A DNA stretch of 64,000 bases, from contig OZ246413.1 of assembly GCA_965231085.1 (NCBI GenBank), positions 270,638 through 334,637 of the forward strand, written 5' to 3'. Positions 395 through 62,625 of the stretch are shown in pieces. The notes below the pieces were generated by a model. The model saw only the letters and a list, made by a program, of their open reading frames with translations, was not told the origin of the DNA and did no database searches. This stretch comes from an uncultured Candidatus Saccharibacteria bacterium (GTDB lineage: Bacteria > Patescibacteriota > Saccharimonadia > Saccharimonadales > UBA10212). The translations under genes and the position numbers were made by a program. Every line of letters starts with the position of its first letter. Position 1 is the stretch's first letter.

Positions 395-826
395 GTGAAG
401 TTGAGCCATAAAAAACGAATTCGATGCCAATCGGGAAAGAGGTGTCGCTTGTTCCACACCTGTAGGGCCAAGAAGCCCGGCAGCTACGAGGTGACGGTCG
501 TAGTCACCGATGCCGTCTACCGCAACATCCAGGAGTATCGCAGGCTCCCGAGCTCAACGAGGGAGAAGGCCTCCTACCCGGTGCCGCTCTTCACCTTCGT
601 GGAGAAGGAGCTGTGCGGAAGGCCGGGTGTCGGGGAGTTCGTGTCTGGCTCGCTCGAGCAGATGCAAGCACTGGTCGGAGGTCGGAACATCGCCTACGCC
701 GACATCTACGTCCCCTTCACTGCGGCCGAAAGGCCGCTCGTCGAGGAGTCGTGGTTCAAGACCTCCCCTCAACAGCTCGAAGAGGCCTTCGGGCGGGCCT
801 TCGTTGCCCGGGCCATGAAGCTCTAG
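395..826 (+). CDS. Hypothetical protein, GC-rich island A (compositionally foreign)
   Basis: Only this frame gives a balanced amino-acid composition; the overlapping frames are R/P/S-rich. About 65% GC on line 541-600. A likelier start is TTG at 449, preceded by AGAGG at 438-442. No family recognised. Confidence 0.55.
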   Translation: MKLSHKKRIRCQSGKRCRLFHTCRAKKPGSYEVTVVVTDAVYRNIQEYRRLPSSTREKASYPVPLFTFVEKELCGRPGVGEFVSGSLEQMQALVGGRNIAYADIYVPFTAAERPLVEESWFKTSPQQLEEAFGRAFVARAMKL

Positions 827-1729: not shown

Positions 1730-1758
1730 GTGAGGAGGGGGTGTTACCCCCTCCTCAC
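1730..1758 (-). terminator. GC-rich hairpin terminator of the island B gene
   Basis: Perfect 12-bp stem gtgaggaggggg / ccccctcctcac with loop tgtta. It overlaps the TGA stop (1755-1757). The minus-sense downstream sequence is U-rich (cucaucuuuuauaau). Confidence 0.6.
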
Positions 1759-2360
1759 CGGATGGTCCGTGCGCGAGCCCTGTCTAGGACTGCCCTTCTG
1801 GCATCGTCGATCGAGACGATGCGAATCTGCCCGTTCTGGATCGGGCGAACCTCAGCTTGGCGGCTGCCGAGATTGATCGAGAAGATCTCGCATAGGCCGA
1901 AGGACAGAACTTCGCCCTTGGCCCCGACCTTGAAGCCTCGATCGTGGTGCGGCTGATGCTGCTCCAGAAGCTCCCAGATCATGCTGGGATCGCCGTCATA
2001 CGGAACCTTGACCTTCATGCAGGTGGCCCGGATGACGCACCTTCCGATGGTCGGAGGCTGAACGATCTCCGGCTTGGTCTGGATCGGCGGGATTGGGACC
2101 GCCATCACTCTTGCGAGCATGGCAGGGTTCGCCATGAGCTGCTTGCGCTTCCAGCGGATGGCGTCGGGGCTGCGCCCGAGCACCTGCGCCAAGATCTTGT
2201 CCTTGGGCCTCCCCTCCTGGACGATCCTGTGGCACTCTTCGTCGGTCCACGGCTTGTTGCCGTTGTTCGGAGAGACAGACGCCAGCGGCGGCCTGGCGAC
2301 GGCTTGGACCCTCGCGTTCCTCCTCACCACTTCTGGCGGTACACGTCTGATTTTGAACAT
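1755..2360 (-). CDS. Hypothetical protein with a Myb/SANT-like helix-turn-helix segment, GC-rich island B
   Basis: KPWTDEECHRIVQEG...LGRSPDAIRWKRKQL resembles Myb/SANT-type HTH. GAGG lies 7 nt upstream of the ATG. About 62% GC on line 2101-2160. Alternative frames are R/G/P-rich artefacts. Confidence 0.55.
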   Translation of the reverse strand: MFKIRRVPPEVVRRNARVQAVARPPLASVSPNNGNKPWTDEECHRIVQEGRPKDKILAQVLGRSPDAIRWKRKQLMANPAMLARVMAVPIPPIQTKPEIVQPPTIGRCVIRATCMKVKVPYDGDPSMIWELLEQHQPHHDRGFKVGAKGEVLSFGLCEIFSINLGSRQAEVRPIQNGQIRIVSIDDARRAVLDRARARTIR

Positions 2361-2437: not shown

Positions 2438-3109
2438 TTATTCAGTCTTGTTTTTGTATGAGCCGCTGCAAACGTCAGGGTATTGTGATTTGTATTGCCA
2501 GGTGGAGCTATCGTAGATAGCCTGAACCGATTTCCGTGATGCCTCGTCAAAGTATGTCATAGGACAAAGCCTGTCAGTAATTATACTCGGGGTCCCAAAC
2601 TCCCAATGAATCTGGTAACCACCTACTTCGTTGTGAAGTTTAGGATTAGCTGGATGTCCCAAAAAGTCGCCAACTTTTACATGGGAGCCCTTTTTAAGAT
2701 TGGTGTTATATGTCTCCATCTCCTTATAACGGATAATATATGGCCAGCTACTAACATCAATTTCCCATTTGGGCCATTTGTCCGTCACTAGGCCAATGCT
2801 ACTAATTACTCCGTTTGATGATGAAAGCACGTTACCATCTGGTCCGGACCATTGAAAATCAATACCAGGATGACCACCGGGTGCGTTGGGGTGATAAATC
2901 TTCTCACCCATCGGTATGAGATTGATTGGCGGTGAATTCAAGTCGTATGGAGCATGGATTACTATCCGTTTGTGAGGTAAGAATGTGTCTGGCCTAACAA
3001 GAAAAAAAGAAGCTCCCAAAATAGCAATACCAATCGTTAGTAATAAGGTTTTTAACCAGTGGAGTTTTAGCCACTTAAGCATAAGCCTATTGTACAGCAG
3101 GCTGAGCAT
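2438..3109 (-). CDS. Membrane-anchored M23-family (LytM-like) peptidase
   Basis: N-terminal TM segment. GGHPGIDF matches the HxxxD motif, and a C-terminal YQIHWEFG histidine motif is present. Confidence 0.6.
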   Translation of the reverse strand: MLSLLYNRLMLKWLKLHWLKTLLLTIGIAILGASFFLVRPDTFLPHKRIVIHAPYDLNSPPINLIPMGEKIYHPNAPGGHPGIDFQWSGPDGNVLSSSNGVISSIGLVTDKWPKWEIDVSSWPYIIRYKEMETYNTNLKKGSHVKVGDFLGHPANPKLHNEVGGYQIHWEFGTPSIITDRLCPMTYFDEASRKSVQAIYDSSTWQYKSQYPDVCSGSYKNKTE

Positions 3110-3137
3110 TGATAGTAATACGTAAATATATTATAAT
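3109..3137 (+). promoter_or_regulatory. Sigma70-like promoter candidate upstream of the island C gene
   Basis: TTGATA (3109-3114), 17-nt spacer, TATAAT (3132-3137), about 125 nt upstream of the ATG at 3262. Confidence 0.4.
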
Positions 3138-3261: not shown

Positions 3262-3711
3262 ATGGATTTCCCCAGCTATAGCCGGACCTTCAAGGGTGGC
3301 TCGGCCAACGTTCGGCTGTTCGGCTTCACGGACGTCTCCGCCGATCACAGCTTCTGCACCTATCTGGTTCAGGCCATGATGACCTGCATCGACGATCTCA
3401 AGCAGAAGCTCGAGGCGTCGTTCGCCAAGGCTCACGCTGCGGATGTCGTCGAGGTCACCTTTGCCGAGCGAATCAGCATCGGCGGTCGGCAGGTCGTCGA
3501 CGTGTTCTACACGGTCAAGACGGCGGCCTACATCGACGAGGCGGAGTTGCGCAAGCTGATGGCGGCCCATCTCAAGGGCGCCTCGGTCTCGGCGCACACC
3601 CTGTGCCTCATGGCCGAGGCCCCCAGGGGCGCTGTGATCATCGTGCTGCGTCGACCGAACGGGATCGAGTACGACGTCCCGACAAGCGAGGAGATGACCG
3701 GCCGGCTCTGA
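3262..3711 (+). CDS. Hypothetical protein, GC-rich island C (compositionally foreign)
   Basis: SD GAGAGGAG lies upstream of the ATG. By my hand count about 85-90% of codons end in G/C. About 63% GC on line 3301-3360. No family recognised. Confidence 0.6.
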   Translation: MDFPSYSRTFKGGSANVRLFGFTDVSADHSFCTYLVQAMMTCIDDLKQKLEASFAKAHAADVVEVTFAERISIGGRQVVDVFYTVKTAAYIDEAELRKLMAAHLKGASVSAHTLCLMAEAPRGAVIIVLRRPNGIEYDVPTSEEMTGRL

Positions 3712-3772: not shown

Positions 3773-3792
3773 TTCCCTTATCTAGAGTTTGT

Positions 3793-5010
3793 TTATTGAG
3801 CCATGCGGTCTTCGACAAAGGTCAAAGCTTCGCCAGTTTTACCGGCTCGCCCAGCTCGCCCAATTCGGTGAATGTAATCCTCGTAAGTCTGAGGCAAGTC
3901 ATAGTTTATTACGTGTGTTATTTCTTTAACGTCAATTCCACGAGCAGCTACGTCGGTTGCTACTAGTATGTTTACATGCCCGGCCTTAAAGTTTTCCAGG
4001 GCGCGCTTGCGCTGGCCTTGGCTTTTACCACCGTGCATGTATTCAACTTTGAATCCCTTGGATTTTAGTTCATTACCTAATCTCTCAACGCCGTACTTAG
4101 TCTTACCAAAGATTAGAACCTTACTGACCTCAGGCTTGGATAGTACTTCCTCTAGTTTGCGCATTTTCATGAATTTGTCGTTGTAGCGTATAACGTCTTG
4201 GTTAACATTTTCACTGGTCTCACCAACCTTAACGTTTATCACAACCGGTTCATGGGCAAACGTATTAATAAGTCTGCTGATTTCATCGCTTAGGGTCGCG
4301 CTAAAAAAGAAGGCTTGGTGTTCAGCTGGGAACTTATCTAGAATAAACCTGACATCGTTAATAAAACCCATGTCTAGCATGCGGTCGACTTCGTCCAGAA
4401 CAACCATATTAAACTGACTCAGGTTTAATGTGCCCTGGTTCATATGGTCCTTAATGCGGCCTGGAGTACCGATAACTAGTCGAACACGACCTTTTAGCTG
4501 AGTCTTTTGTTTACCATCAGGCACGCCACCAATTAGAAGTATCGGCTGCAAGCCACTGTTTTTAGCAAAAATTCTAGCTTGATCTTCAATCTGCATAGCC
4601 AACTCTCTGGTTGGTGCAATTACCAAACCTTGAGTTTCAGGATGACGTAGCAAACTATTTAGTATGGGCAAAATGAAGGCTGCAGTTTTACCGGTTCCGG
4701 TGTTGGCAATACCAACAATACTCTTACCTTGTAGTCCCAGGGCTATAGTTTTGTCCTGGATTTCGGATGGATTGATGTAGCCTTTTTGGGCGACATTACT
4801 CTTTAAAAGGGGGTGCATCGCAAAGTCAGCAAACGAGTTTGTTGCAATGTACTCTGTTTGAACAGCTGTTGGCTTAGCCGCCTTAACAAACATAGCCGGA
4901 TGCATGTTAGAGGCTTTAGCCGGTTTCTTAGACGAAAAAGATCGTCTGTTGCTATAAGATTGGGTGCCTGGGCGTCTTGGCCCACGGCGGTATGATGAAT
5001 TTTGATACAT
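3793..5010 (-). CDS. DEAD-box ATP-dependent RNA helicase
   Basis: Motifs present: ANTGTGKTAAF (motif I), PTRELA, DEVDRML (motif II variant), SAT and HRIGRAGRAG (motif VI). Confidence 0.9.
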   Translation of the reverse strand: MYQNSSYRRGPRRPGTQSYSNRRSFSSKKPAKASNMHPAMFVKAAKPTAVQTEYIATNSFADFAMHPLLKSNVAQKGYINPSEIQDKTIALGLQGKSIVGIANTGTGKTAAFILPILNSLLRHPETQGLVIAPTRELAMQIEDQARIFAKNSGLQPILLIGGVPDGKQKTQLKGRVRLVIGTPGRIKDHMNQGTLNLSQFNMVVLDEVDRMLDMGFINDVRFILDKFPAEHQAFFFSATLSDEISRLINTFAHEPVVINVKVGETSENVNQDVIRYNDKFMKMRKLEEVLSKPEVSKVLIFGKTKYGVERLGNELKSKGFKVEYMHGGKSQGQRKRALENFKAGHVNILVATDVAARGIDVKEITHVINYDLPQTYEDYIHRIGRAGRAGKTGEALTFVEDRMAQ

Positions 5011-5315
5011 AAAAAAAGAATCCTCGTGGTTATTAATAGTTATTCTAATGCTCTAGTGAAGCCTTGTTTAACTATTTATAAACCTGGATTCAATACGAAC
5101 AATAAGTATATTTTAGCACAAGTGTAATAAAAGCGCCAGCCCTAGTGGTTTTACCCCCGAGTCTATGATCTTTATCACTGTTAATTCATGGTTTGTGTTT
5201 TAAAAATATAAACAGCGAGCAACATGCAGCACTTAAGAGTTAACTCAAGTGCTTGCTAAGCAGCTAAATTGATACTAATCTTGAAGCAGTAATAAGCATA
5301 AAGGAGATACTGGTC

Positions 5316-5822
5316 ATGGAGCAGTTAAATAAATTAGAGGCTAGACTAGAAAGTGTGTTCAAAGGGGCGCCAAAGTTACCGGAGAACGCTGTAAAGACAA
5401 TAGTCAGCTGGTTACCTTGGATTAACTTAGTACTGGGTATATTTAGTCTGTGGGCGGCCTATGCGTTATGGCATTGGGCGCACCAAGTAAACAGCTTGGT
5501 CAATTACCTAAACGGACTTTCTGCTGCTTACGGTGGTTCGGCCACAACTGCAAGCAATATGACAGCTGGACTTTGGTTGGCTTTAATAGTCATAGCTTTT
5601 GAAGGTGTCCTGTTTTTGATGGCCTTTCCAGCTACTCAGGCTAAGTCAAAAAGAGGCTGGAGCTTAATGTTCTATGCGGCACTGGTTAACTTAGTTTACG
5701 GAATAGTATTGCTGTTCACAGATTACGGCTCAACTGGCAACTTTTTAGGTTACTTGGTTGGAACAGTGTTGGGACTTTGGATACTTTTCCAAATCAAGCC
5801 AAAATACGTTGGTTCTAAGTAA
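5316..5822 (+). CDS. Hypothetical integral membrane protein
   Basis: SD AAGGAG upstream. Several hydrophobic spans such as WLPWINLVLGIFSLWAAYALW. Confidence 0.6.
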   Translation: MEQLNKLEARLESVFKGAPKLPENAVKTIVSWLPWINLVLGIFSLWAAYALWHWAHQVNSLVNYLNGLSAAYGGSATTASNMTAGLWLALIVIAFEGVLFLMAFPATQAKSKRGWSLMFYAALVNLVYGIVLLFTDYGSTGNFLGYLVGTVLGLWILFQIKPKYVGSK

Positions 5823-5876: not shown

Positions 5877-6311
5877 TTATCGAGTAATTCTGAGGTATGG
5901 CTTTCGGACGCTAAAAATCAGTTTGGTATTTTTGCCCGTTAGTTTAATCAAATGGGTATGCAAATGAATTACTGTCTTTCGGTTTGAGCCAGGTGCTCGG
6001 GAATATATGTTATAGCCGCTAGCCTCATATTTTGTTAATAATTTTACGTACTCAATTAATTGTTTATCGTTCAGGCTAGCTAAGCTATCAATATGTTGTT
6101 TTGGTACTATCATCAAGTGGTCGGCTACCTTTTGGCTATCCCAAAGTGAATACGGAAAAATGTTCTTAACTACAAAAAAATTATCGGTTGCTTCAACTAC
6201 CTCAGCTGGGCGATCTGTAAAGTTACAGAACTCACATACCGACCTGTCGGTCTTAGAGAGGTGTTTATGATAAATCAACGTTTCTTTTCTAGACCGAGGT
6301 GCAGTCATCAA
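5877..6311 (-). CDS. HIT-family (histidine triad) nucleotide hydrolase/transferase
   Basis: C-terminal histidine triad VIHLHTHLI (HxHxHxx). Confidence 0.75.
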   Translation of the reverse strand: MMTAPRSRKETLIYHKHLSKTDRSVCEFCNFTDRPAEVVEATDNFFVVKNIFPYSLWDSQKVADHLMIVPKQHIDSLASLNDKQLIEYVKLLTKYEASGYNIYSRAPGSNRKTVIHLHTHLIKLTGKNTKLIFSVRKPYLRITR

Positions 6312-6328
6312 TATCTATCACTCCTCTA

Positions 6329-6889
6329 CTAACCGCGGTTTTTTGGAATCAGTATTAAGGCCGAGGTCCAGGCAATAACTGCAAGCCAAGCGACTACCAC
6401 CAGATTAGCGTATACACCAATTCTATCTTCGTAAGGCTTTAGTGATTGGCCGGCAATAACAAATCCATTATCTGGACTCTTGCCGTAGGTAGTAGCATAT
6501 ATTGCTGAGCGAACAGCCGCCTTTGGTTGCCATGTAACTTTGTCGGTTTGGTGCTCACTAGTATATTCAAAAACTCCTTCCGGTGGCAGCGGGGTCTTGC
6601 CGTCAAGAACTGCTGAACTCGCCAGAACATGACGCGAACTGTCAGTAATGATAACAAAGCTATTATTGTTACTATCGATGCTTATTTTACGGGCGGACAC
6701 TACATCCTGTGGTATAGAACCGTTCTCAAGGTCGGACTTAGTTTGTTGAGCCAGAGATAGGGGGATGTCATTAGCCGATAATCTTGTCGATTGTTGGGCT
6801 ATCACATAACCAGCAAGTAGCACCAAAGTAGAGCTACCAACTATTGCTAGCCAGAGTCGAATATGGGTTTTGGCCAGTATTTCCCTCAT
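6329..6889 (-). CDS. Hypothetical bitopic membrane protein
   Basis: The track ORF is 6329..6958. The likelier start is the ATG at 6887-6889 (MREILAKTHIRLWLAIVG). TM segments at both ends. Confidence 0.55.
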   Translation of the reverse strand: MREILAKTHIRLWLAIVGSSTLVLLAGYVIAQQSTRLSANDIPLSLAQQTKSDLENGSIPQDVVSARKISIDSNNNSFVIITDSSRHVLASSAVLDGKTPLPPEGVFEYTSEHQTDKVTWQPKAAVRSAIYATTYGKSPDNGFVIAGQSLKPYEDRIGVYANLVVVAWLAVIAWTSALILIPKNRG

Positions 6890-6960
6890 ATATTTAAATT
6901 GTATCAAATAAACACAAGCAATCCTGGCAAAAGGCCAAAACCTAGTCATAAAAAACAAGA

Positions 6961-6990
6961 TTTACAGTGCAGGCTGCAATGTTGTATAAT
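6961..6990 (+). promoter_or_regulatory. Sigma70-like promoter candidate for the GC-rich RNA
   Basis: TTTACA (6961-6966), 18-nt spacer, TATAAT (6985-6990). Confidence 0.5.
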
Positions 6991-7327
6991 ATGCCGGCAC
7001 GCTTGAGGTCCTGCCCCTGGGGCACGATGCTTGAGCACCGCAACAAGGACGCGGGAGCTATTCTCCCGTTCAATCTCGGACCTCGAAAGTGAGGATCGAA
7101 TGAAACGGTCGCAGGAGAGCACCACGGGCTAGCAAGGCGAGCACCATGGCTGATGGTCTAGTCGCAAGACGGAACCCCGCACACAGCGGAACTAGGCCAT
7201 GGGGGCTCAGGGCTTCGAGGCCTGCCTCGACCCTGGGCCCCCGCCCAACTCTAATCACCTCGTACACCAGTTTTTGTACCGCGATCACTCGCGACTTAAA
7301 CCGGCATCTGCGAGGTGCTTTCTATTC
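6991..7327 (+). ncRNA. Unassigned GC-rich structured RNA candidate (~330 nt)
   Basis: About 60% GC and no frame shows GC3 skew. Stems: 6991-6997/7301-7307; 7052-7057/7063-7068; 7077-7084/7091-7098; a 10-bp stem 7153-7162/7191-7200; a long hairpin 7201-7242; 7280-7284/7289-7293. Three G-U pairs work only in plus sense. A terminal hairpin at 7304-7318 is followed by uuucuauu. Confidence 0.5.
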
Positions 7328-7821
7328 TAGGCAGGTTTTCTACTCAGGATAACAAAGGTGTAGTTATAGGCGTTTTTAGCGTCTGCTAGGTGCGGTTCCC
7401 GGCTCTGCTCTTGCCAGTTATCGGGGTTGAACCTAAAATATTTATCACCTTCAATCTCAGCATCAACTTCTGTCAGATAGATACGCTCAGCTATGGGTAG
7501 CGCTAGGTTATATATTGTTTCACCGCCAATTATAAATATTTCGTCCGAGCCGGGTGATTGCCTAGCCAGTTCAATAGCGTCATTCAGCGATGAGGCGCTC
7601 AGGCAACCTTCGTATTTGGCGCCAGGCTCTCTGCTTATAACTATGTTGGTTCTATCTGGCAGGGCTCGACCAATTGATTCATGAGTTTTGCGCCCCATAA
7701 TAATTGGGTGCCCAGTGGTAGTGCGTTTGAAGAACGCCATTTCAGATGGTAGCTTCCACGGCAGCCCATTTTCTTTACCTATAACTCCGTTTTTTGCAGT
7801 CGCAACAATGATCGATAACAT
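7327..7821 (-). CDS. folA: Dihydrofolate reductase
   Basis: MLSIIVATAKNGVIGKENGLPWKLPSEMAFFKRTTTGHPIIMGRKTHESIG; lies downstream of thyA. Confidence 0.9.
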   Translation of the reverse strand: MLSIIVATAKNGVIGKENGLPWKLPSEMAFFKRTTTGHPIIMGRKTHESIGRALPDRTNIVISREPGAKYEGCLSASSLNDAIELARQSPGSDEIFIIGGETIYNLALPIAERIYLTEVDAEIEGDKYFRFNPDNWQEQSREPHLADAKNAYNYTFVILSRKPA

Positions 7822-7836
7822 GGGCTGTACTCCTTA

Positions 7837-8772
7837 TTAGACTGCGATAGGCGCTGAAATTGCTGGATGTGACTGATAATCTTCGAGCTTTATATCATCA
7901 AATTTAAAGTCGAAGATATTCTTTATTTTTGGGTTAAGCCATAGCTTTGGTAACGGATAAGGTTCGCGAGACATCTGAAGTTCAGCTTGGTCAAAATGAT
8001 TAACAAACAAATGGGCGTCACCAAAGGTATGTACAAAATCTCCGGGTTTTAGGCCAGTTACTTGGGCCATCATCATGGTCAGCAGTGAATAAGAGGCAAT
8101 GTTAAATGGAACACCCAGGAAGGTATCGGCGCTTCTTTGGTACAACTGACAACTCAGTTTACCGTCGGCTACATAGAACTGAAAAAGTGTGTGGCAAGGC
8201 GGCAAGCCAGCTTTAGCCATCTCGTCAATATCAGCTACATTCCATGCCGAGACGATTATACGCCGCCCACTCGGGTGATTACCATCAGCTTTAACGGCAT
8301 TTATATTCTCAACAGCCTTAGCAATTTGGTCGATTTCTTGCCCATTAGGTGTTCTCCAGTGTCGCCATTGGTAACCATAAACTGGCCCAAGCTCACCCCA
8401 TTTTTTGGCAAACTTTTCGTCAGTTTTAATCTTTTCGGTAAACTCCTTAATTCCAGTCTTCCATTCATCGCTGCTGGAGTTTGGCACTGCCTTGCCCTGC
8501 TCTTGCAGATAATGCCTATAGGGCCATTCATCCCAAATATGAACATCATTATCTACTAGGTACTTAATATTAGTTGAACCCTGTAGGAACCAAATAAGCT
8601 CGTGAATGATCCCCCTCATAAATAGTTTTTTGGTAGTCACGGCCGGAAATCCCTGACTTAAATCGAATCTCATCTGGCGGCCAAAAACACTAGCTACATC
8701 GGTTCCCTGACGAGTTTTTTTGTGTGTCCCGTTTTCCTTTATGTCTTTAAGTAGGTCTAGGTATTGCCTCAT
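7837..8772 (-). CDS. thyA: Thymidylate synthase (ThyA type)
   Basis: [11 protein letters not shown]...; active-site region [12 protein letters not shown]; also [12 protein letters not shown]. Confidence 0.92.
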
Positions 8773-8840
8773 AGTTTTTACATTATATCGCCATACTGTT
8801 GCCTTGCGCGTTGTATTTTAGTCACGTAAGCTAAAGAGGT

Positions 8841-10493
8841 ATGGAACAGTTGGTGGAAAAACTAAAAACAAACAAATTCAGCGGCGAACTTGACTCCACG
8901 GCTGATACCCTGGAGTTTTATAGTCATGATGCCTCGCTTTTTGAACTAAGACCAAAACTAGTTGTCTTTCCATCAAATAGTCGAGACCTACAGACTCTGG
9001 TTAAAACTGTTGTTGAACTGCGACCTAAGCTACCAGGACTTTCCCTAACGGCAAGGAGCGGTGGAACCTGCATGTCCGGTGGAGCCATTAACGATTCGAT
9101 TATTATTGATTTCAACAAACATTTTACAAAAATTGAAAAAGTATCCAGCACATTGGCTCAAGCCCAACCAGGCGTTTTTTATCGAGATTTCGAGAAGGCT
9201 ACCTTAGCCAAAGGCGCTCTAATGCCAAGCTTTCCGGCCAGTCGAGAACTGGCTACGGTTGGTGGTATGGTGGCCAACAACGCTGGTGGTGAAAAATCGT
9301 TGGAATTTGGTAAAACCGAGAATTTTGTGCGAGAGCTCGAAGTTATTTTAGCCGATGGCAACAAGTACACCCTAAAGGCCCTAAACAAACGAGAGCTTAT
9401 AGCCAAGATGGGCCAAAAAAACTTTGAGGGCCAAGCCTACAAGCAACTATTTGAAATATTAGAAGATAATTATGAGTTGATTAAAGCGGCTAAGCCTCAC
9501 GTTACTAAAAACTCCATGGGTTACAACCTATGGGATGTATGGGACAGGCAAACGGGCGTCTTTGATCTAACTAAGCTTTTTGTTGGGTCACAAGGAACTT
9601 TGGGTCTAATAAGCGATATAAAGTTTGATTTGGTTCATAACAAACCTCATTCCGGTGTTTTAGTCGTGTTTATGCGTGATATTAAACAGCTTGGCGAAAT
9701 TATAAACACTGTTCTAACGCAAAGACCGGCTAGTTTTGAATCTTTTGATAATTACACCTTAATGTTGGCAATTAAGTTCTTTCCATACTTTAGAAAAACT
9801 CTGGGCTGGCTGGGTCTGATTAAGCTAGGATTTCAGTTAATACCAGACGCCCTAGTTTTATTCCGTGGCGTCCCAAAACTAACCCTATTAATTGAGTTTA
9901 CTGGCGAGACTCCCCAGGTTGTGGCTCATAAAATCCGCAAGATGAAGGAAATGCTGGAGCCTTTTCCGCTTGAAGCCATGGAGGAGGATTCTACCGAAGC
10001 CAAGGCCTGGAAGTTTAGAATTATCCGGCGCGAAAGCTTTAACTTGCTACGTAAAAAGGTCAAAGACAAACACACGGCGCCGTTCATCGACGATTTTGTT
10101 GTACCGCCCAAACACCTGGTTGAATTTTTACCTAAACTCCAGAAGATTATCAAAAAGTACAAATTGCTAGCCACTATTGCTGGGCATATGGGCGACGGCA
10201 ATTTTCATGTCATACCACTCATGAAAATTGAAGAACCTAAAGAGCGGGCCAAAATCCAGCCAGCCATGCGGGAGGTTAATGAGTTGGTGCTTAGCTATGG
10301 TGGCAGTCTGAGCGGCGAGCATAACGATGGTCTAATTCGCGGGCCGTGGCTAGAAGATATGTACGGCCGAAAAGTCTATGAACTATTTAAGCAAACTAAA
10401 CACATCTTTGATCCCGATAACATTTTTAATCCTCACAAAAAGACCGACGCCACCTGGGACTACTCAATGTCACATATCAGAAAAGAATTTTAG
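8841..10493 (+). CDS. FAD-linked oxidase (GlcD / D-lactate dehydrogenase family)
   Basis: FAD-binding PCMH-type region ARSGGTCMSGG...VGGMVANNAGGEKS and C-terminal GGSLSGEHNDGLIRG. Confidence 0.8.
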   Translation: MEQLVEKLKTNKFSGELDSTADTLEFYSHDASLFELRPKLVVFPSNSRDLQTLVKTVVELRPKLPGLSLTARSGGTCMSGGAINDSIIIDFNKHFTKIEKVSSTLAQAQPGVFYRDFEKATLAKGALMPSFPASRELATVGGMVANNAGGEKSLEFGKTENFVRELEVILADGNKYTLKALNKRELIAKMGQKNFEGQAYKQLFEILEDNYELIKAAKPHVTKNSMGYNLWDVWDRQTGVFDLTKLFVGSQGTLGLISDIKFDLVHNKPHSGVLVVFMRDIKQLGEIINTVLTQRPASFESFDNYTLMLAIKFFPYFRKTLGWLGLIKLGFQLIPDALVLFRGVPKLTLLIEFTGETPQVVAHKIRKMKEMLEPFPLEAMEEDSTEAKAWKFRIIRRESFNLLRKKVKDKHTAPFIDDFVVPPKHLVEFLPKLQKIIKKYKLLATIAGHMGDGNFHVIPLMKIEEPKERAKIQPAMREVNELVLSYGGSLSGEHNDGLIRGPWLEDMYGRKVYELFKQTKHIFDPDNIFNPHKKTDATWDYSMSHIRKEF

Positions 10494-10993
10494 GGCAGTT
10501 TGATCCAGCGCTGTTTGATGGTCCAGAGTGGCTTAGAGCTGGTTGTTAGTATCCCAAACAGAACTAAGAAGTAGATAAAGTGTTCGTCAACGCCTGGCGA
10601 ATTAGCTGGCCACAACAAGGAGCTCCACATTAAAGCCATTAAGATCATGCCAGCTACAGCCGCTGACTTAATCCATGTCCCAAACAATAGGCCCACCCCA
10701 ATAAAGAGTAATCCGAGCATAAAAGCCCAATCTACAAACACATTACCAGCCAAGTGGTGGTAAAAATTAGCAAATGGACCGGTTACGGCATTGCCTAAAA
10801 ACCCTTTTGTTGGTGATCCGCCATGTATCCATGACTGAGAGCAAGCTAGGTTAATTGCTCCGGCTTTATCCTTGCAGGTAGCAAAACCTAAGCCTAAAAG
10901 TTTATCAAAAAAGGCCCACAAGAAAATGTAGCCTAGCCCTAGTCTTGCGATTGACCAGCCATATGAGTTTGGATCGTGTTTTGATTGTGCCAT
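10490..10993 (-). CDS. DoxX-like small membrane protein
   Basis: Four hydrophobic spans. The N-terminal RLGLGYIFLWAFFDKL resembles DoxX/DoxD. Weak call. Confidence 0.5.
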   Translation of the reverse strand: MAQSKHDPNSYGWSIARLGLGYIFLWAFFDKLLGLGFATCKDKAGAINLACSQSWIHGGSPTKGFLGNAVTGPFANFYHHLAGNVFVDWAFMLGLLFIGVGLLFGTWIKSAAVAGMILMALMWSSLLWPANSPGVDEHFIYFLVLFGILTTSSKPLWTIKQRWIKLP

Positions 10994-11064
10994 AGTATTT
11001 TCCTTTTTAATTCTTATGCTTTTATAGTATCCCCAGAAAAGCCTATTGGCAAACGCGTGTTTGG

Positions 11065-11748
11065 TTATTTATTAGATTCTATCTCGTACATGTCGGCCCA
11101 CTCTATAAACCACCAGCCTAAAATAATCATCTGTGAGTACTGCATATAAACAGCGATGTCTTCTATGGCACGGTTTTCGTAAAACGATCCCAGACCCAAG
11201 AAAATAATAAACAGAACTGCTGCTAGGGCAGCAAATATGCTAACCAACCTTAGCCTCATGCTAGCCAGGCGCTTAGCATAAAGCCAGCTTGCCAGCGGTA
11301 GTAATAAGATACAAAAACCTATGGCAACACTACTGTATATATGCCGGGGTAGTACTAAATGGTTAATATCAAGTGTTGCTGGTACGCTGCAGGCTTTATC
11401 TAAAATATTCGTGCATGGCAGCGGTACCAGAGCATCAATAATATTAAAAATGCCAAAAGCCACACCACCCAGGGCAATTATCTTGCCTAATTGTTGTTTT
11501 TGCTGGAGTCTAAACAGCACAAAACAGATCAAAATTATTAACAATCCAGCCAGAATATCTAACGACCGAAACACATAGTGATGTGGTTGCGAAAGAGCGC
11601 TAAAATCACTAATTGAACCCCTGTGGTATAAAAGCTTGGGGTTAAAAATGAGAGCCAATATCCAATTGTTAACAGTTATCGCAAACAACCAAAGTGAATA
11701 TTTGGACTTTATTACAGCGGTTATGCTCATCACAAAGTATAATAACAA
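11065..11748 (-). CDS. Hypothetical polytopic membrane protein
   Basis: Multiple TM spans; no recognisable motif. Confidence 0.5.
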   Translation of the reverse strand: MLLYFVMSITAVIKSKYSLWLFAITVNNWILALIFNPKLLYHRGSISDFSALSQPHHYVFRSLDILAGLLIILICFVLFRLQQKQQLGKIIALGGVAFGIFNIIDALVPLPCTNILDKACSVPATLDINHLVLPRHIYSSVAIGFCILLLPLASWLYAKRLASMRLRLVSIFAALAAVLFIIFLGLGSFYENRAIEDIAVYMQYSQMIILGWWFIEWADMYEIESNK

Positions 11749-11757
11749 CTAGTTAAT

Positions 11758-13461
11758 ATGCAGCCTAGCGCCAGGATAAAATTAAACCTTGTAGCCTCTC
11801 TTGTATTTTTAAGTGGAGCCATAACTCTTTGGAGCATTCTTTTATCTTTTTTGCATGCTAAAAACTTAAGAATTGTGGTTGCTGATGCTCGGCTAACAGT
11901 TATAGCCGGCATAAGCCTTGTGTATCTGGCCACATTATTAAAGCGCGGCAAGTACAATGCCTGGCTAATTGCTATTGGAGTGTACGGATTTTTAATTGTT
12001 CGGAACATCGAGCACTATATTATTGACCACCGGCCGGGCCACAGAATTATTCTGGCCGTTATTAATATCACCATTCCAGTTCTAACTATCACTCTGCTCC
12101 TTAGTTTCAAAAAACTTTTCAGGGTTAAAAGCGAGCCACGCAGCTTTGTTGTAGCCACTAAACGCTCGGCACTAATAATTTCTATTGCGTTTATTTATGG
12201 CGTGGTTGGATTTCAGCTCTTCGATAGGCGAGATTTTAATCAGGAGATATCCTTACCGGCTGCCGCCCACTTTACGGTTGATCAATTTGGTCTTACAACA
12301 CAAAAAGAATTAGTTGCTAACACAAAACGAGGAGTCTTTTTTGTTGATTCACTTGCGGCAATTAGTGTTACGTCGTTAGTCTATGTTGGCATTGCTTTCT
12401 TCTCGCCAATTCGTTTTAAATTAACTCACCGCGATGCCGATACCCTGGCTGCCCTTGAAATTGCTAAGAAAAAATCAAAAACCAGCGAGGACTTTTTTAA
12501 ATTTTGGCCGAAGGATAAGGCATATTTTTTAAACGAACAAAAAACAGCCTTTCTAGCTTATAGAGTAGTTAGGAGCGTGGCGCTTGTGGTTGGCGACCCA
12601 ATTGGTAGCGATAAGGACGTATATCTGCTTATAAAAAGTTTTTGCGAATACTGCCGTCTAAACGATTGGGCGATTGCCTTTATTCATACCGATGGATCGC
12701 TCACTTCCCTTTACAACCGGCTTGATTTTGACGAACAAAAAATTGGTGAGGAGGCGATTGTTGACGTTGATAAGTTTATTAAAGAAGTTGCTGGCAACAA
12801 ATATTTTAGGCATATAAATAATAAATTCACCAAGCAGGGCTACAAGTGTGAGTTGGTGTCGCCACCTTTTTCTGACGAATTATTTAATAAAATCAGCAAA
12901 ATATCTGAAGATTGGCTAAAGCAACCAGGTCGTGCTGAGCGGGGCTTTATGCTCGGCTATTTTAGTCGAGATTACATGAATCAGTGCAAACTAATGCTTG
13001 CCTATGATGAATCGGGTAATATCAAAGCCTTTATCAACCAAATACCTAGCCTAAGAGAGGGCGAGGCTAGCTATGACTTCCTCCGACAGTCCAATGATAG
13101 CTTGGGCAATATCAACGATTATCTTATGGTCAACTTTATTAGAGCCCTACATGACCAAGGCTATAGGCAGTTAAATATGGGGCTATGCCCTCTTTCGGGC
13201 TTAAGCGCTGAAGATGAAAAAGATCGGGGGCTAATGGACGGAGTTCTAAACTTTGTTTATTCCAATGCCGGGCGCTTTTACTCTTTCCAGGGTCTCAGAC
13301 GGTTTAAATCAAAATACGAACCCGACTGGCAGCCCAGATATATTGTTTACAGGGGTGGCCTACCAGGGTTGACCCGCTCGGCTAATGCCTTGCTCAGAGC
13401 CATGACTCACTATAATAGCTGGGAGAAGCATGGCAATAGTCTGGATTTGAATGCCAAGTAA
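11758..13461 (+). CDS. MprF-like protein (membrane N-terminus plus a lysyl-phosphatidylglycerol synthase-like C-terminal domain)
   Basis: The TM-rich N-terminus is followed by FFKFWPKDKAYFLNEQKTAFLAYRVV...VVGDPIG and a C-terminal FQGLRRFKSKYEPDW, as in the LPG-synthase C domain. Confidence 0.65.
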   Translation: MQPSARIKLNLVASLVFLSGAITLWSILLSFLHAKNLRIVVADARLTVIAGISLVYLATLLKRGKYNAWLIAIGVYGFLIVRNIEHYIIDHRPGHRIILAVINITIPVLTITLLLSFKKLFRVKSEPRSFVVATKRSALIISIAFIYGVVGFQLFDRRDFNQEISLPAAAHFTVDQFGLTTQKELVANTKRGVFFVDSLAAISVTSLVYVGIAFFSPIRFKLTHRDADTLAALEIAKKKSKTSEDFFKFWPKDKAYFLNEQKTAFLAYRVVRSVALVVGDPIGSDKDVYLLIKSFCEYCRLNDWAIAFIHTDGSLTSLYNRLDFDEQKIGEEAIVDVDKFIKEVAGNKYFRHINNKFTKQGYKCELVSPPFSDELFNKISKISEDWLKQPGRAERGFMLGYFSRDYMNQCKLMLAYDESGNIKAFINQIPSLREGEASYDFLRQSNDSLGNINDYLMVNFIRALHDQGYRQLNMGLCPLSGLSAEDEKDRGLMDGVLNFVYSNAGRFYSFQGLRRFKSKYEPDWQPRYIVYRGGLPGLTRSANALLRAMTHYNSWEKHGNSLDLNAK

Positions 13462-17989: not shown

Positions 17990-18064
17990 TGGCTGGGACG
18001 GTAGGATTCGAACCTACGAATGCTGGTACCAAAAACCAGTGCCTTACCACTTGGCGACGTCCCA
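17990..18064 (-). tRNA. tRNA-Gln (anticodon UUG)
   Basis: Cloverleaf read by hand: acceptor tgggacg/cgtccca, anticodon arm ctggt-ttttggt-accag, T-arm gtagg-ttcgaat-cctac, encoded CCA. Confidence 0.85.
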
Positions 18065-18327: not shown

Positions 18328-19275
18328 ATGCCTAATCAAAATTTCAATGCGGAAGATTACATCTTTCCACTTAATATCAATGGCCTTCGCGGCCGGGTGA
18401 TGCATATACCGTCAACCAAAGGTAAGAAGCGCGAGATACTACTGATATACGGCCACCACTCTAGTTTGGAGCGGATTGGCGGGGTTGCTGAGTTTCTTTC
18501 GGCCTATGGCAATGTTACCGTCCCTGACCTCCCAGGCTTTGGTGGTATGGATTCGTTTTACAAAATTGGCGAGAAGGCCAGCCTCGATAATATGGCCGAT
18601 TATCTAGCCTCATTTATCAAGCTTAAATATAAAAACAAACAGGTTACAATTGTTGGTTTGAGCCTAGGTTTTATGATTGTTACTAAAACACTTCAGAAGT
18701 ATCCGGACATTGCCAAAAGGGTGAATCTTTTGATCAGTGTTGTTGGTTTGGTAAACAAAGAAGATTTTGTTTTTAGTAAACGAACTTATCTAATGCTGCG
18801 TTGGGGCTCATCACTATTTTCTCACCGGCTTACCGCTGCATTTGTAAAATATTTTATTCTAAGAAAAACTCTTATCCGAATAGGCTATGCTCTGGCTGAA
18901 GGCGTCTTTATAAAAGACGAGCACTCGAAGGTCAGAAACATAGATAAAGAAGAGCGAAAACACCGCATTAATTTTGAGATTGGCTTGTGGCAGTCCAACG
19001 ATGTACGGACCTACATGAACATGGGCCTGACCATGTTTACGCTAAATCTGGCCGGTAAACATGTTGACCTGCCGGTCTACCATGTTCTTCTAGACGGCGA
19101 TCGCTACTTTGACAGTACCAATGTAGAGGTTCATATGCGCCAAATTTACAAGGATTACAAACCTATAAAAGTTGAGGCACCAAACCACGCACCATCTGTT
19201 GTAGCCGAGGCTAGCGAGATAGCGCACTATATACCGCCGGCCTTGCGCAAACTTCTAAATAAGGACCCAAGTTAG
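18328..19275 (+). CDS. Alpha/beta-fold hydrolase
   Basis: LLIYGHHSSLERIGG and the nucleophile-elbow-like motif GLSLG. Confidence 0.65.
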   Translation: MPNQNFNAEDYIFPLNINGLRGRVMHIPSTKGKKREILLIYGHHSSLERIGGVAEFLSAYGNVTVPDLPGFGGMDSFYKIGEKASLDNMADYLASFIKLKYKNKQVTIVGLSLGFMIVTKTLQKYPDIAKRVNLLISVVGLVNKEDFVFSKRTYLMLRWGSSLFSHRLTAAFVKYFILRKTLIRIGYALAEGVFIKDEHSKVRNIDKEERKHRINFEIGLWQSNDVRTYMNMGLTMFTLNLAGKHVDLPVYHVLLDGDRYFDSTNVEVHMRQIYKDYKPIKVEAPNHAPSVVAEASEIAHYIPPALRKLLNKDPS

Positions 19276-31876: not shown

Positions 31877-32125
31877 AGTTTATTCCTTCGATTAGTTTGT
31901 TAATTTAATTTGTTAACGAGCTTCTTGGTCGACAAAGTTATAAAAAATCTCTGCGCCATATTCTAGCCAGAGACATAATTAACAATCTTGATGAATCGTT
32001 ATTACCTTGGTAGCTTTTCTGGGAGTTCCCAGGCGATTAAGCTTGATTCAAGCAGCTACTGTCTTTGGCTAAACTAGCCACAATTGTAACACTTGTTAGG
32101 TTAATCGGCAAGAGTTTATAAGAGG
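31877..32125 (-). promoter_or_regulatory. Possible rplJ (L10) leader
   Basis: A 249-nt untranslated gap upstream of rplJ containing the palindromic hairpin ctgggagttcccag. Assigned by position only. Confidence 0.3.
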
Positions 32126-38997: not shown

Positions 38998-39073
38998 TGG
39001 CAGGGGAGACAGGACTCGAACCTGCGACCCTCGGTTTTGGAGACCGATGCTCTACCAACTGAGCTACTCCCCT
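38998..39073 (-). tRNA. tRNA-Trp (anticodon CCA)
   Basis: Hand-folded: acceptor aggggag/ctcccct, anticodon arm tcggt-ctccaaa-accga, T-loop ttcgagt, encoded CCA. Confidence 0.85.
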
Positions 39074-39550: not shown

Positions 39551-39625
39551 TGGAGCCGTCGACGAGAGTTGAACTCGTGACCCCCTCCTTACCATGGAGG
39601 TGCTCTACCACTGAGCTACGACGGC
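39551..39625 (-). tRNA. tRNA-Thr (anticodon GGU)
   Basis: Acceptor gccgtcg/cgacggc, anticodon arm cctcc-atggtaa-ggagg, T-loop ttcaact, encoded CCA. Confidence 0.85.
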
Positions 39626-41149: not shown

Positions 41150-41235
41150 TGGTGCAGAGGGAGGGATTCGAACCCCCGAAGGCGAATGCCACTTGATTTA
41201 CAGTCAAGCGTGTTTAACCACTTCACTACCTCTGC
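41150..41235 (-). tRNA. tRNA-Tyr (anticodon GUA), long variable arm
   Basis: Acceptor gcagagg/cctctgc, anticodon arm cttga-ctgtaaa-tcaag, 14-nt variable arm, T-loop ttcgaat, encoded CCA. Confidence 0.85.
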
Positions 41236-41717: not shown

Positions 41718-41793
41718 TGGAGCCGACGGAGGGAGTCGAACCCACGACCCGCTGTTTACAAAACAGCCGCTCTGGCCACTGAGCTACGTCGGC
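41718..41793 (-). tRNA. tRNA-Thr (anticodon UGU)
   Basis: Acceptor gccgacg/cgtcggc, anticodon arm gctgt-tttgtaa-acagc, T-loop ttcgact (one U-U mismatch in the T stem), encoded CCA. Confidence 0.8.
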
Positions 41794-61163: not shown

Positions 61164-62240
61164 TTAGAATGGGATGTCGTCGTCAAATGATAGTTGATTT
61201 GGGTGAATAGCTGTTCTCCCAAGCCATCTATTGAAAATAATCCTATCGTTCCAGAAATACTCTTCGTAACTTACTCTGTCTAAGGTCAACTCATCATCGG
61301 GCTCAATTACGTTGTAGCTATACGCGGCTTTATTAGCCATTACTTCTTGCACAAGCTCTAGCAGGATTCGTTCGTCTCTAGAGAGTCTACGTAAAACCGT
61401 TCGACCACTAGATGGTTTGGAATCTGGGTCGATTGTTACGTTTAATAAGCCGTTGATCCCACTAGCGTATTGGTACGGGTCCCCAGCACTTCCATCAAGG
61501 TGGCTAATTTTACGACGTAGCTCATTACGAAAATTTCTTAGAAGTTGATTTCGTAATTGAATCCTACCACCGGGGTTGATTTGTATTCCCGTCACATTTA
61601 TTGGGCCATGCTTGATGTCCTGAACTCTGGTCTTAGATTCATTAATCTCAAACATGTACTGAGCAATTATCTCTCTTATATCTCGACGTTTTCGTTTACC
61701 GATTGAATCTGTAGCTAATTCTCCGGTGTCGGGACTTGAGAACACTAAATCATCCATATACCGGGTATAAATTATCCCAACCCTTCTACAATAGTCTGCT
61801 ATAGCAAGGTCCATATCTAGGCAGTATGCATTGAATAGGCGCGGTGAGCTTGGTCCTCCCATTACCAAACCAGCTCCGTCAGGTGATAAGCAAGACTCGT
61901 TTAATATTTTTAATATTGTTTCGTGGTCAAGCGGCTCGTTAATCGCAAACTGCAACCTGAAAAGTCTATCCGCTAAGACAGGCATATCCACCTGACCATA
62001 CGCTCTGGCTAGATCAATCTGAAAAAAATAACGCGAGCCAGAGTGTCGTAGGGCATTCTCGGCAATATTATTCCCTCTTAGCCCTCCAGTCGCATAATCA
62101 AATTCAATGCCGGTTTTATCAAAGTAATGATTGATGACCTCATGCTCCTCTCGCATCAGGTCATTAGGCGCCCAAACACGCCTGTTACCGGCGTACATTA
62201 AGTGCCACGCGCTAGTCTCACTTGAGTTTGCTTTTGTCAT
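61164..62240 (-). CDS. Retron-type reverse transcriptase
   Basis: NALRH (aa 62-66, NAxxH); FFQIDLARAY (motif A, D76); GLVMGGPSSPRLFNAY (motif B); RYMDDLVFS (YxDD, aa 161-164); INESKT; NVTGIQI (VTG, aa 216-218). There is no maturase/endonuclease domain. Length 358 aa. Confidence 0.8.
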   Translation of the reverse strand: MTKANSSETSAWHLMYAGNRRVWAPNDLMREEHEVINHYFDKTGIEFDYATGGLRGNNIAENALRHSGSRYFFQIDLARAYGQVDMPVLADRLFRLQFAINEPLDHETILKILNESCLSPDGAGLVMGGPSSPRLFNAYCLDMDLAIADYCRRVGIIYTRYMDDLVFSSPDTGELATDSIGKRKRRDIREIIAQYMFEINESKTRVQDIKHGPINVTGIQINPGGRIQLRNQLLRNFRNELRRKISHLDGSAGDPYQYASGINGLLNVTIDPDSKPSSGRTVLRRLSRDERILLELVQEVMANKAAYSYNVIEPDDELTLDRVSYEEYFWNDRIIFNRWLGRTAIHPNQLSFDDDIPF

Positions 62241-62327
62241 AAATATAAATTAGCGATGAAATATCAATTCCCTAAACCCCGAAGGGCAAGAGATGTTTGA
62301 TATTCCACCGCATAGGGGCGCGTCAGG

Positions 62328-62567
62328 GGGGATCTTGGGGACCCCTGGTGTCAGGAGTTGTTTACCCGACGCTCCTCGGCTCACCAGCGCGGTCAGTGCA
62401 CATCCAGTCGAACCCATAGCTGCCTGGAGTCACCGTTCTCTGCGCCTAGATACCTCAGATCACTTGTGTCTTAGCTTTGTATGAGCTAAGCCGAGCCGGA
62501 ACTCCCTATCCCGAAGGATTAGCAGTCCCCGCACTGTTGGTTGATGTTATGCATCCCCAAGATCCCC
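62328..62567 (-). ncRNA. Retron msr-msd-like non-coding RNA candidate, closed by a1/a2 inverted repeats
   Basis: Lies directly upstream of the RT on the same strand. The 14-bp perfect IR ggggatcttgggga (62328-62341) / tccccaagatcccc (62554-62567) encloses about 240 nt. About 63% GC on line 62341-62400. Internal hairpins are present; see the findings. Confidence 0.6.
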
Positions 62568-62625
62568 TCATGCTATACAAGCAGCACCTGCTCATGATGT
62601 TCGAGCAGCTGACCACCTAGCTGTG

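Follow-up and report, generated by a model that had tools for sequence, protein, structure and literature searches.

A GC-rich insertion beside folA in a Saccharibacteria genome is a candidate structured non-coding RNA gene

A GC-rich, non-coding block of approximately 330 nt was found between folA and a membrane-protein gene in the genome of an uncultured Saccharibacteria bacterium (order Saccharimonadales, candidate phyla radiation). The block is real and well delimited, and we give about an even chance to its being a recently acquired, independently transcribed structured non-coding RNA encoded on the plus strand. It is filed here as an unconfirmed candidate for a stand-alone bacterial structured RNA gene, represented by a singleton. 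Coordinates refer to the window, that is, the whole 64-kb stretch of DNA that was analysed.

Results

A lineage-specific insertion in the folA/membrane-gene spacer

The locus was compared with 14 related Saccharimonadales loci, in which the gene order FAD-oxidase, thyA (or thyX), folA and membrane-protein gene is kept. The spacer between folA and the membrane-protein gene measures 437 bp here versus 12–53 bp in the relatives, one of which (L041) has a spacer of about 175 bp whose sequence does not resemble the block. None of the 14 carries the block at the corresponding site, and the difference in spacer length identifies it as a lineage-specific insertion. From the spacer comparison, the extra DNA extends over positions 6915–7326, both edges being approximate, and comprises an AT-rich promoter segment and the GC-rich body. 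It is bounded on one side by the folA stop codon (7327–7329) and on the other by the extended −10 element of the membrane-protein gene.

This extended −10 element, TGATACAAT (6901–6909, minus strand), is located 8 nt before the ATG (6889–6887), and its equivalents in L163, L164 and L165 are TGATATACT, TGTTATACT and TGGTATAAT (near position 5985). An extended −10 (TGnTAnAnT) is present 7–10 nt before the start of the membrane-protein gene in all the genomes compared, which suggests that a leaderless mRNA for this gene is conserved in Saccharimonadales. With a conserved −10 beside its ATG, the gene does not depend on the block for a leader.

The folA of this organism is at most 62–71% identical to other Saccharimonadales folA, and the exact folA protein is confined to this one organism, in a small number of Logan and NCBI assemblies; the metagenomes in which the organism occurs are SRR14271372 and SRR14271366. 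The available assemblies of this genome are 100% identical and consequently provide no polymorphism.

Two further observations were made on the related loci. In L163, a 537-residue Thy1 (ThyX-type) gene located on the opposite strand (3789–5402 of that locus) replaces thyA, and folA is retained; enzymes of the ThyX type are generally considered to reduce the requirement for folA, and the pairing is unusual. In L165 (ENA ERZ25039539 contig_17841), the GC content rises from approximately 45–50% to 65–80% over the last 4 kb (8600–12564), which carry glycosyltransferase genes, a shift explained either by extensive transfer of DNA from a high-GC organism or by chimerism of the assembly.

Composition and coding capacity

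The GC content of positions 6991–7310 is 61% (0.60–0.61 over 7000–7300), compared to 44% for the window and the genome. By codon phase it is flat over the whole block (0.66/0.59/0.58), in agreement with the initial annotation of this DNA, which had described the block as GC-rich and non-coding. Locally, phase GC is uneven at 6991–7080 (0.57/0.53/0.77) and at 7111–7230 (0.77/0.53/0.57). The locally periodic frames are interrupted by several stop codons, and no frame of the block holds the GC3 of 0.81–0.87 typical of the neighbouring GC-rich ORFs. The longest ORF, of 72 aa on the minus strand, gave 0 matches among 1.84 billion representatives in a full HMMER search, and no match in Pfam or PHROG.

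The short direct repeats listed previously were found in their places, with the sole correction that the first copy of gagcacca starts at 7118 and not at 7117; the second is at 7139, and the two copies of gcttgag are at 7001 and 7029. The block contains three plus-strand copies of the 7-mer GAGCACC (7033–7039, 7118–7124 and 7139–7145), and the sequence GGUGCU, complementary to it, lies within the 3' arm of the predicted terminator hairpin (7314–7319). By a rough estimate, the chance that some 7-mer appears three times in 320 nt is approximately 0.02–0.05. These repeats could allow an alternative pairing with the terminator or constitute a repeated binding site.

Promoter and terminator signals at the edges of the block

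A promoter scan detected a sigma-70 promoter, TTTACA-N18-TATAAT, at positions 6961–6990 of the plus strand, with 11 of the 12 consensus positions matched. The promoter directly borders the GC-rich block on its left side and is directed into it, as had been proposed, and transcription from it would be expected to start at around position 6997. Three sites with at least 11/12 matches are present on the two strands of the 64-kb window, the other two being located upstream of the ORF at 3262 (promoter at 3109–3137) and 14 nt upstream of the gene at 18328. As composition-matched shuffles yield 1.8 such sites per window, it is the position of the promoter that is informative and not the number of sites; from this shuffle rate, the chance of finding a random site of this quality within 40 nt of the block edge on this strand is about 6 x 10−4.

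At the opposite edge, an intrinsic terminator is predicted on the plus strand (7256–7327), formed by a compound 63-nt hairpin at 7256–7318 (−25.3 kcal/mol, z = −5.45) that is followed by CUUUCUAUUCU, with an interrupted U-rich tail, CUUUCUAUUC. Its end coincides with the folA stop codon; read on the minus strand, the same hairpin lacks a U run after it. A plus-strand hairpin with a U-rich tail had been noticed before and is indeed present, but the small hairpin at 7303–7319 is weak by itself (−6.8 kcal/mol, z = −1.1). On the minus strand, a weak terminator-like hairpin (6920–6942, z = −1.6) followed by GCUUGUGUUU was detected within the extra DNA, immediately before the promoter of the membrane-protein gene. 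As read from the sequence, the block carries on a single strand a promoter, a non-coding body and an intrinsic terminator, the arrangement of a generic independent sRNA gene. What the analysis establishes is the anatomy of the block, its status as an insertion and its lack of a match to any known family, and its transcription, strand, ends and function are inferred.

Predicted folding of the block

Compared with dinucleotide shuffles, the whole block folds with z = about −3.8 on either strand, and by folding energy its two strands are indistinguishable. The strongest values correspond to two sub-domains, at 7150–7245 (−56.6 kcal/mol, z = −5.7) and 7250–7330 (z about −5.5), for each of which 0 of 200 shuffles was as good; the 5' domain (6997–7098) is less extreme, with −40.3 kcal/mol and z = −2.4. 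Among all the regions tested, the block also had the lowest positional entropy (z = −2.1) and ensemble diversity (z = −1.9), measures in which the plus strand is slightly ahead of the minus strand. For comparison, native genes gave z values of about 0 and the GC-rich coding islands described below gave values from +0.5 to −3.2. As one coding island reaches −3.2, the z value of the whole block may partly reflect a foreign high-GC composition, and its folding stability is less diagnostic than first appears. The values of the two sub-domains (−5.5 to −5.7) are beyond that of any coding island.

The initial annotation had depicted the block as densely structured, and every hairpin that it named was recovered (7012–7024, 7052–7068, 7077–7098, 7153–7200, 7201–7242 and 7280–7293). 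In the predicted plus-strand fold, together with the repeat analysis, the 5' domain (6998–7091) consists of a helix between 6998–7011 and 7078–7091 that surrounds the hairpins at 7012–7024, approximately 7026–7041, and 7052–7068; the 7077–7098 hairpin is present in the sequence. It is followed by a hairpin at 7153–7200 with a 10-bp closing stem (7153–7162/7191–7200) that contains one G-U pair (U7157-G7196) and encloses a GUC-GCAA-GAC tetraloop hairpin at 7161–7170. Immediately adjacent, an 18-bp GC-rich hairpin with a CCUG loop, a 2-nt bulge and one G-U pair occupies positions 7201–7242, as seen in the sequence, as an inverted repeat and in the fold. The hairpin at 7280–7293 is of 5 bp.

Two of the structural arguments made earlier required modification. 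The perfect 7-bp inverted pair that had been interpreted as an end-closing stem (ATGCCGG at 6991–6997 and CCGGCAT at 7301–7307) exists, but its 5' arm begins one base past the −10 hexamer and lies mostly upstream of the expected transcription start, so that the stem and the promoter are not jointly usable as described. Regarding the G-U pairs that had been taken to indicate the plus strand, a hand count over shared helices gave four valid only in this sense against one valid only in the minus sense, a difference that is not significant.

Searches for homologues and known families

No match within the block was obtained when the whole window was searched against Rfam 15 at the gathering score, and a search of 6850–7450 at E<=10 with lax filters returned nothing beyond miRNA-like matches, at chance level, in the 42-nt hairpin (7201–7242). 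ARAGORN detected neither a tRNA nor a tmRNA in the block. The absence of the housekeeping-RNA signatures that had been remarked on the sequence was thus upheld at both Rfam thresholds. In the rest of the window, the Rfam matches at the gathering score were an L10 ribosomal-protein leader (31933–32086, minus strand) and five tRNAs, all on the minus strand (17993–18064, 39001–39073, 39554–39625, 41153–41235 and 41721–41793); no gene for RNase P RNA, tmRNA, SRP RNA or 6S RNA was reported by Rfam in the 64 kb.

Conservation, whose absence the initial annotation had named among the grounds for refutation, was not found in the data searched. An nhmmer search with positions 6960–7340 against 162 folA-anchored genome and metagenome loci recovered identical self copies alone, and a single-sequence covariance model of 7108–7250 run on 30 sources recovered only itself, so that neither method detected a homologue of the block in the 171 loci fetched. 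Distant-mode blastn against phages and plasmids gave nothing meaningful, and two exact-pattern scans of viral contigs gave no match to the block. These results, together with the absence of the block from the 14 relatives, leave no homologue with which covariation could be assessed. A second copy of the block was absent from the window and from the 9 kb upstream of it.

Several known classes were considered individually and rejected. RNase P RNA, tmRNA, SRP RNA and 6S RNA gave no Rfam match at E<=10, and ARAGORN found no tmRNA. The signatures that we take to be diagnostic are, for RNase P RNA, the P4 core GGAAAGUCC/ACAGAA, for SRP RNA, the GGAA motif of its core, and for tmRNA, the tRNA-like ends. 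The sequence GACUUAAACCGGCAU in the block partly resembles the 3' strand of CR-V/P4, but the motif of the 5' strand of P4 is absent, and Rfam reported no RNase P match. The sequence GUACCGCG is common to the block and the T-box consensus; however, a T-box is rejected by the lack of both an Rfam match and a co-directional gene downstream. Similarly, no riboswitch or other cis-regulatory leader was matched in Rfam, and what lies downstream on the plus strand is folA in antisense; a leader on the minus strand is rejected because the downstream membrane-protein gene has its conserved promoter 8 nt before the ATG. Finally, the block is not a MITE, as no inverted repeat joins its edges at about 6915 and 7326 and there is no target-site duplication.

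A retron-type reverse transcriptase elsewhere in the window

The initial annotation had pointed out that no partner gene lies next to the block. None is adjacent, but a retron-type reverse transcriptase gene is present in the window at 61164–62240. This enzyme, encoded on the minus strand, shows NAxxH, YMDD and VTG motifs and scores 4e-27 with PADLOC RT_II-A and 7e-29 with the NCBIfam retron St85 model, the latter below its cut-off. Just upstream of it, a non-coding stretch of approximately 350 nt (62250–62620, minus strand), preceded by an extended −10, folds well on the minus strand alone (z = −3.2 versus −0.3 on the plus strand). This stretch, for which Rfam gave no report, is probably an msr-msd RNA.

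The block resembles retron msr-msd RNAs in its length of a few hundred nucleotides, in the short inverted repeats at its ends and in its long stable hairpin. In a retron RNA, a1/a2 inverted repeats lie at the two ends of the transcript, with a branching G beside a1. The 7-bp pair at 6991–6997/7301–7307 was considered in this light; its 5' arm lies right against the −10 hexamer and would probably not be part of an RNA made from that promoter. Assignment of the block as a retron RNA was rejected, as the only reverse transcriptase of the window is 54 kb away and has its own structured upstream region (62250–62620), to which the block shows no sequence similarity.

A cluster of GC-rich insertions

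Neither the insertion nor its clustering had been noted in the initial annotation: with the block included, a 7-kb stretch contains four GC-rich insertions. A scan of the window for GC >=0.57 revealed three GC-rich islands, each with an orphan ORF, at 395–826 (plus strand), 1755–2360 (minus strand) and 3262–3711 (plus strand). These ORFs have a GC content of 0.61–0.63 and a GC3 of 0.81–0.87, a clear high-GC coding signature, and the islands are inserted among conserved backbone genes in a genome of 44% GC. On manual reading, each ORF is followed by a hairpin resembling a terminator, and no clear promoter was seen for the first two islands; only the third has a promoter detected by the scan (3109–3137). 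Each island is apparently a self-contained gene unit.

The island proteins gave no match in Pfam, PHROGs, PADLOC, NCBIfam or PDB, no tblastn match in phages or plasmids and no relatives in viral contigs, and two of them are single-member clusters in a collection of 15 billion proteins. No end motifs common to the four GC-rich islands were found, nor did the 9 kb preceding the window contain further GC-rich islands. The hosts of Saccharibacteria are high-GC Actinobacteria, and the cluster looks like a hotspot at which DNA was recently acquired from a high-GC donor or from several.

Discussion

Resemblance to known RNA genes

The closest parallels are the stand-alone structured RNA genes recovered by Klein and Eddy and by the searches of the Breaker laboratory. 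Like these, the block is a GC-rich island without an ORF in an AT-rich genome, has its own sigma-70 promoter and an intrinsic terminator, and folds well beyond its shuffles. Candidates of that type rest on conservation and covariation, whereas the block is a one-lineage singleton among acquired high-GC DNA.

Ms1, an actinobacterial RNA of approximately 300 nt that binds RNA polymerase, is of high GC content and poorly conserved in sequence, and sequence searches for it fail across distance (PMC9130861). The block is alike in size and GC content and, to judge from its sequence, looks strongly expressed. However, 6S and Ms1 RNAs form a single long rod with a central bubble, and the block has two or three predicted domains and no end-to-end rod. 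Both its minimum free energy and centroid folds are predicted to be multi-domain and no Rfam match to 6S or Ms1 was found at E<=10, for which a 6S/Ms1-like RNA was rejected.

In Patescibacteria, some tRNA genes contain group I introns at position 35/36 (PMC13011429). Such genes share with the block a length of approximately 300 nt, a high GC content, their escape from standard annotation and the phylum, and the 7-bp end stem of the block resembles an acceptor stem. They were rejected because neither a T-arm nor a T-loop directly precedes the 3' arm (with 7 unpaired nt in between and a UCAC loop), a D-arm is missing, ARAGORN found nothing, and neither Intron_gpI nor tRNA was matched at E<=10.

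Alternative explanations

The alternative that survives best is that the block is inert or decaying horizontally acquired high-GC DNA, either a pseudogene remnant or the non-coding flank of a cassette like those of its three neighbours, with its structure as a by-product of GC content and any transcript functionless. We consider this unlikely, though a serious contender. The three insertions of like GC (0.61–0.63) within the same 7 kb are in its favour, as is the fact that the block is absent from all the relatives and without homologue in the searches made. The coding sequences of the islands also out-fold their shuffles, down to z = −3.2, but the sub-domains of the block surpass them (−5.5 to −5.7). 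Likewise, hints of 3-base periodicity at 6991–7080 and 7111–7230 would fit a coding remnant, but no frame keeps the GC3 of the neighbours and the periodic frames contain several stops. Inert DNA would, moreover, not be expected to have a near-consensus promoter and a terminator exactly at its two edges, and small, gene-dense genomes are expected to shed useless DNA quickly. In any case, a recent insertion need not be functional.

It is improbable, in our estimate, that the block represents a functional and undescribed class of structured RNAs of about 330 nt, derived from a high-GC donor together with the three orphan genes. The donor could then be the actinobacterial host or the mobile elements of this host, and the RNA, expressed from the strong promoter, might act by sequestering a protein or in the interaction with the host.

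Slightly more doubtful still is that the minus strand is the functional one, the block serving the thyA-folA mRNA as a structured 3' UTR, as a terminator or as a stabiliser, or else forming a barrier in front of the membrane-protein gene. The block does follow folA immediately on this strand, the folA stop codon is not succeeded by a U-tailed terminator, and a weak minus-strand terminator is present at 6942–6920. The minus-strand fold is also as stable as that of the plus strand (z = −3.7) and includes a 7-bp stem with a GUGA tetraloop. However, 14 relatives dispense with any such element, the membrane-protein gene keeps its own conserved promoter beside the ATG and so requires no leader, and the strong plus-strand promoter and U-tail would be left unexplained.

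A transcript that encodes one or several very small proteins, such as a type I toxin-like peptide, is very unlikely: type I toxin loci typically have highly structured mRNAs with 5'-3' pairing, and the candidate ORFs include one of 10 codons (7100–7132) with a GAGGA Shine-Dalgarno sequence (GAGGA-N4-AUG at 7092–7102), one of 21 codons (7027–7092) and the 72-codon minus-strand ORF, in which GC1 > GC3 > GC2, but no peptide is hydrophobic in the manner of type I toxins, a 68-codon plus-strand ORF crosses the terminator, the 72-aa product lacks the database relatives sought above, and the public assembly has no gene call here.

A possible mechanism

Our preferred reading, a plus-strand structured RNA, supposes that a self-contained transcription unit was acquired in this lineage and inserted into the 12–53-bp spacer between folA and the membrane-protein gene. 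The strong sigma-70 promoter at 6961–6990 would drive a non-coding plus-strand RNA of about 330 nt, whose fold would begin with a branched 5' domain, continue with a pair of large neighbouring hairpins and close with the long terminator hairpin and its U-rich tail. Because no convincing, U-tailed terminator of the thyA-folA operon precedes the block, the mRNA of this operon probably continues across it in antisense, as far as the weak terminator at 6942–6920. The plus-strand RNA would then be fully complementary to the 3' extension of the thyA-folA mRNA, over approximately 300 nt. In the most concrete mechanism that we can offer, the block would act as a convergent antisense RNA or as an insulator that keeps thyA-folA and the membrane-protein gene apart; a role in trans, through binding of a protein or of another RNA, is equally open.

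Implications

Extremely reduced genomes are thought to shed non-essential DNA, and to our knowledge almost nothing has been described of the non-coding RNAs of extremely reduced bacteria. Should the block be only a remnant, it would serve as a warning that horizontal transfer from high-GC donors confounds the search for RNA genes as GC-rich islands in AT-rich genomes. A genuine RNA would represent a rare recent gain of a large structured non-coding RNA by an extremely reduced genome. The four high-GC insertions bear on how Saccharibacteria take up and domesticate foreign DNA, the donor of which may be their high-GC host.
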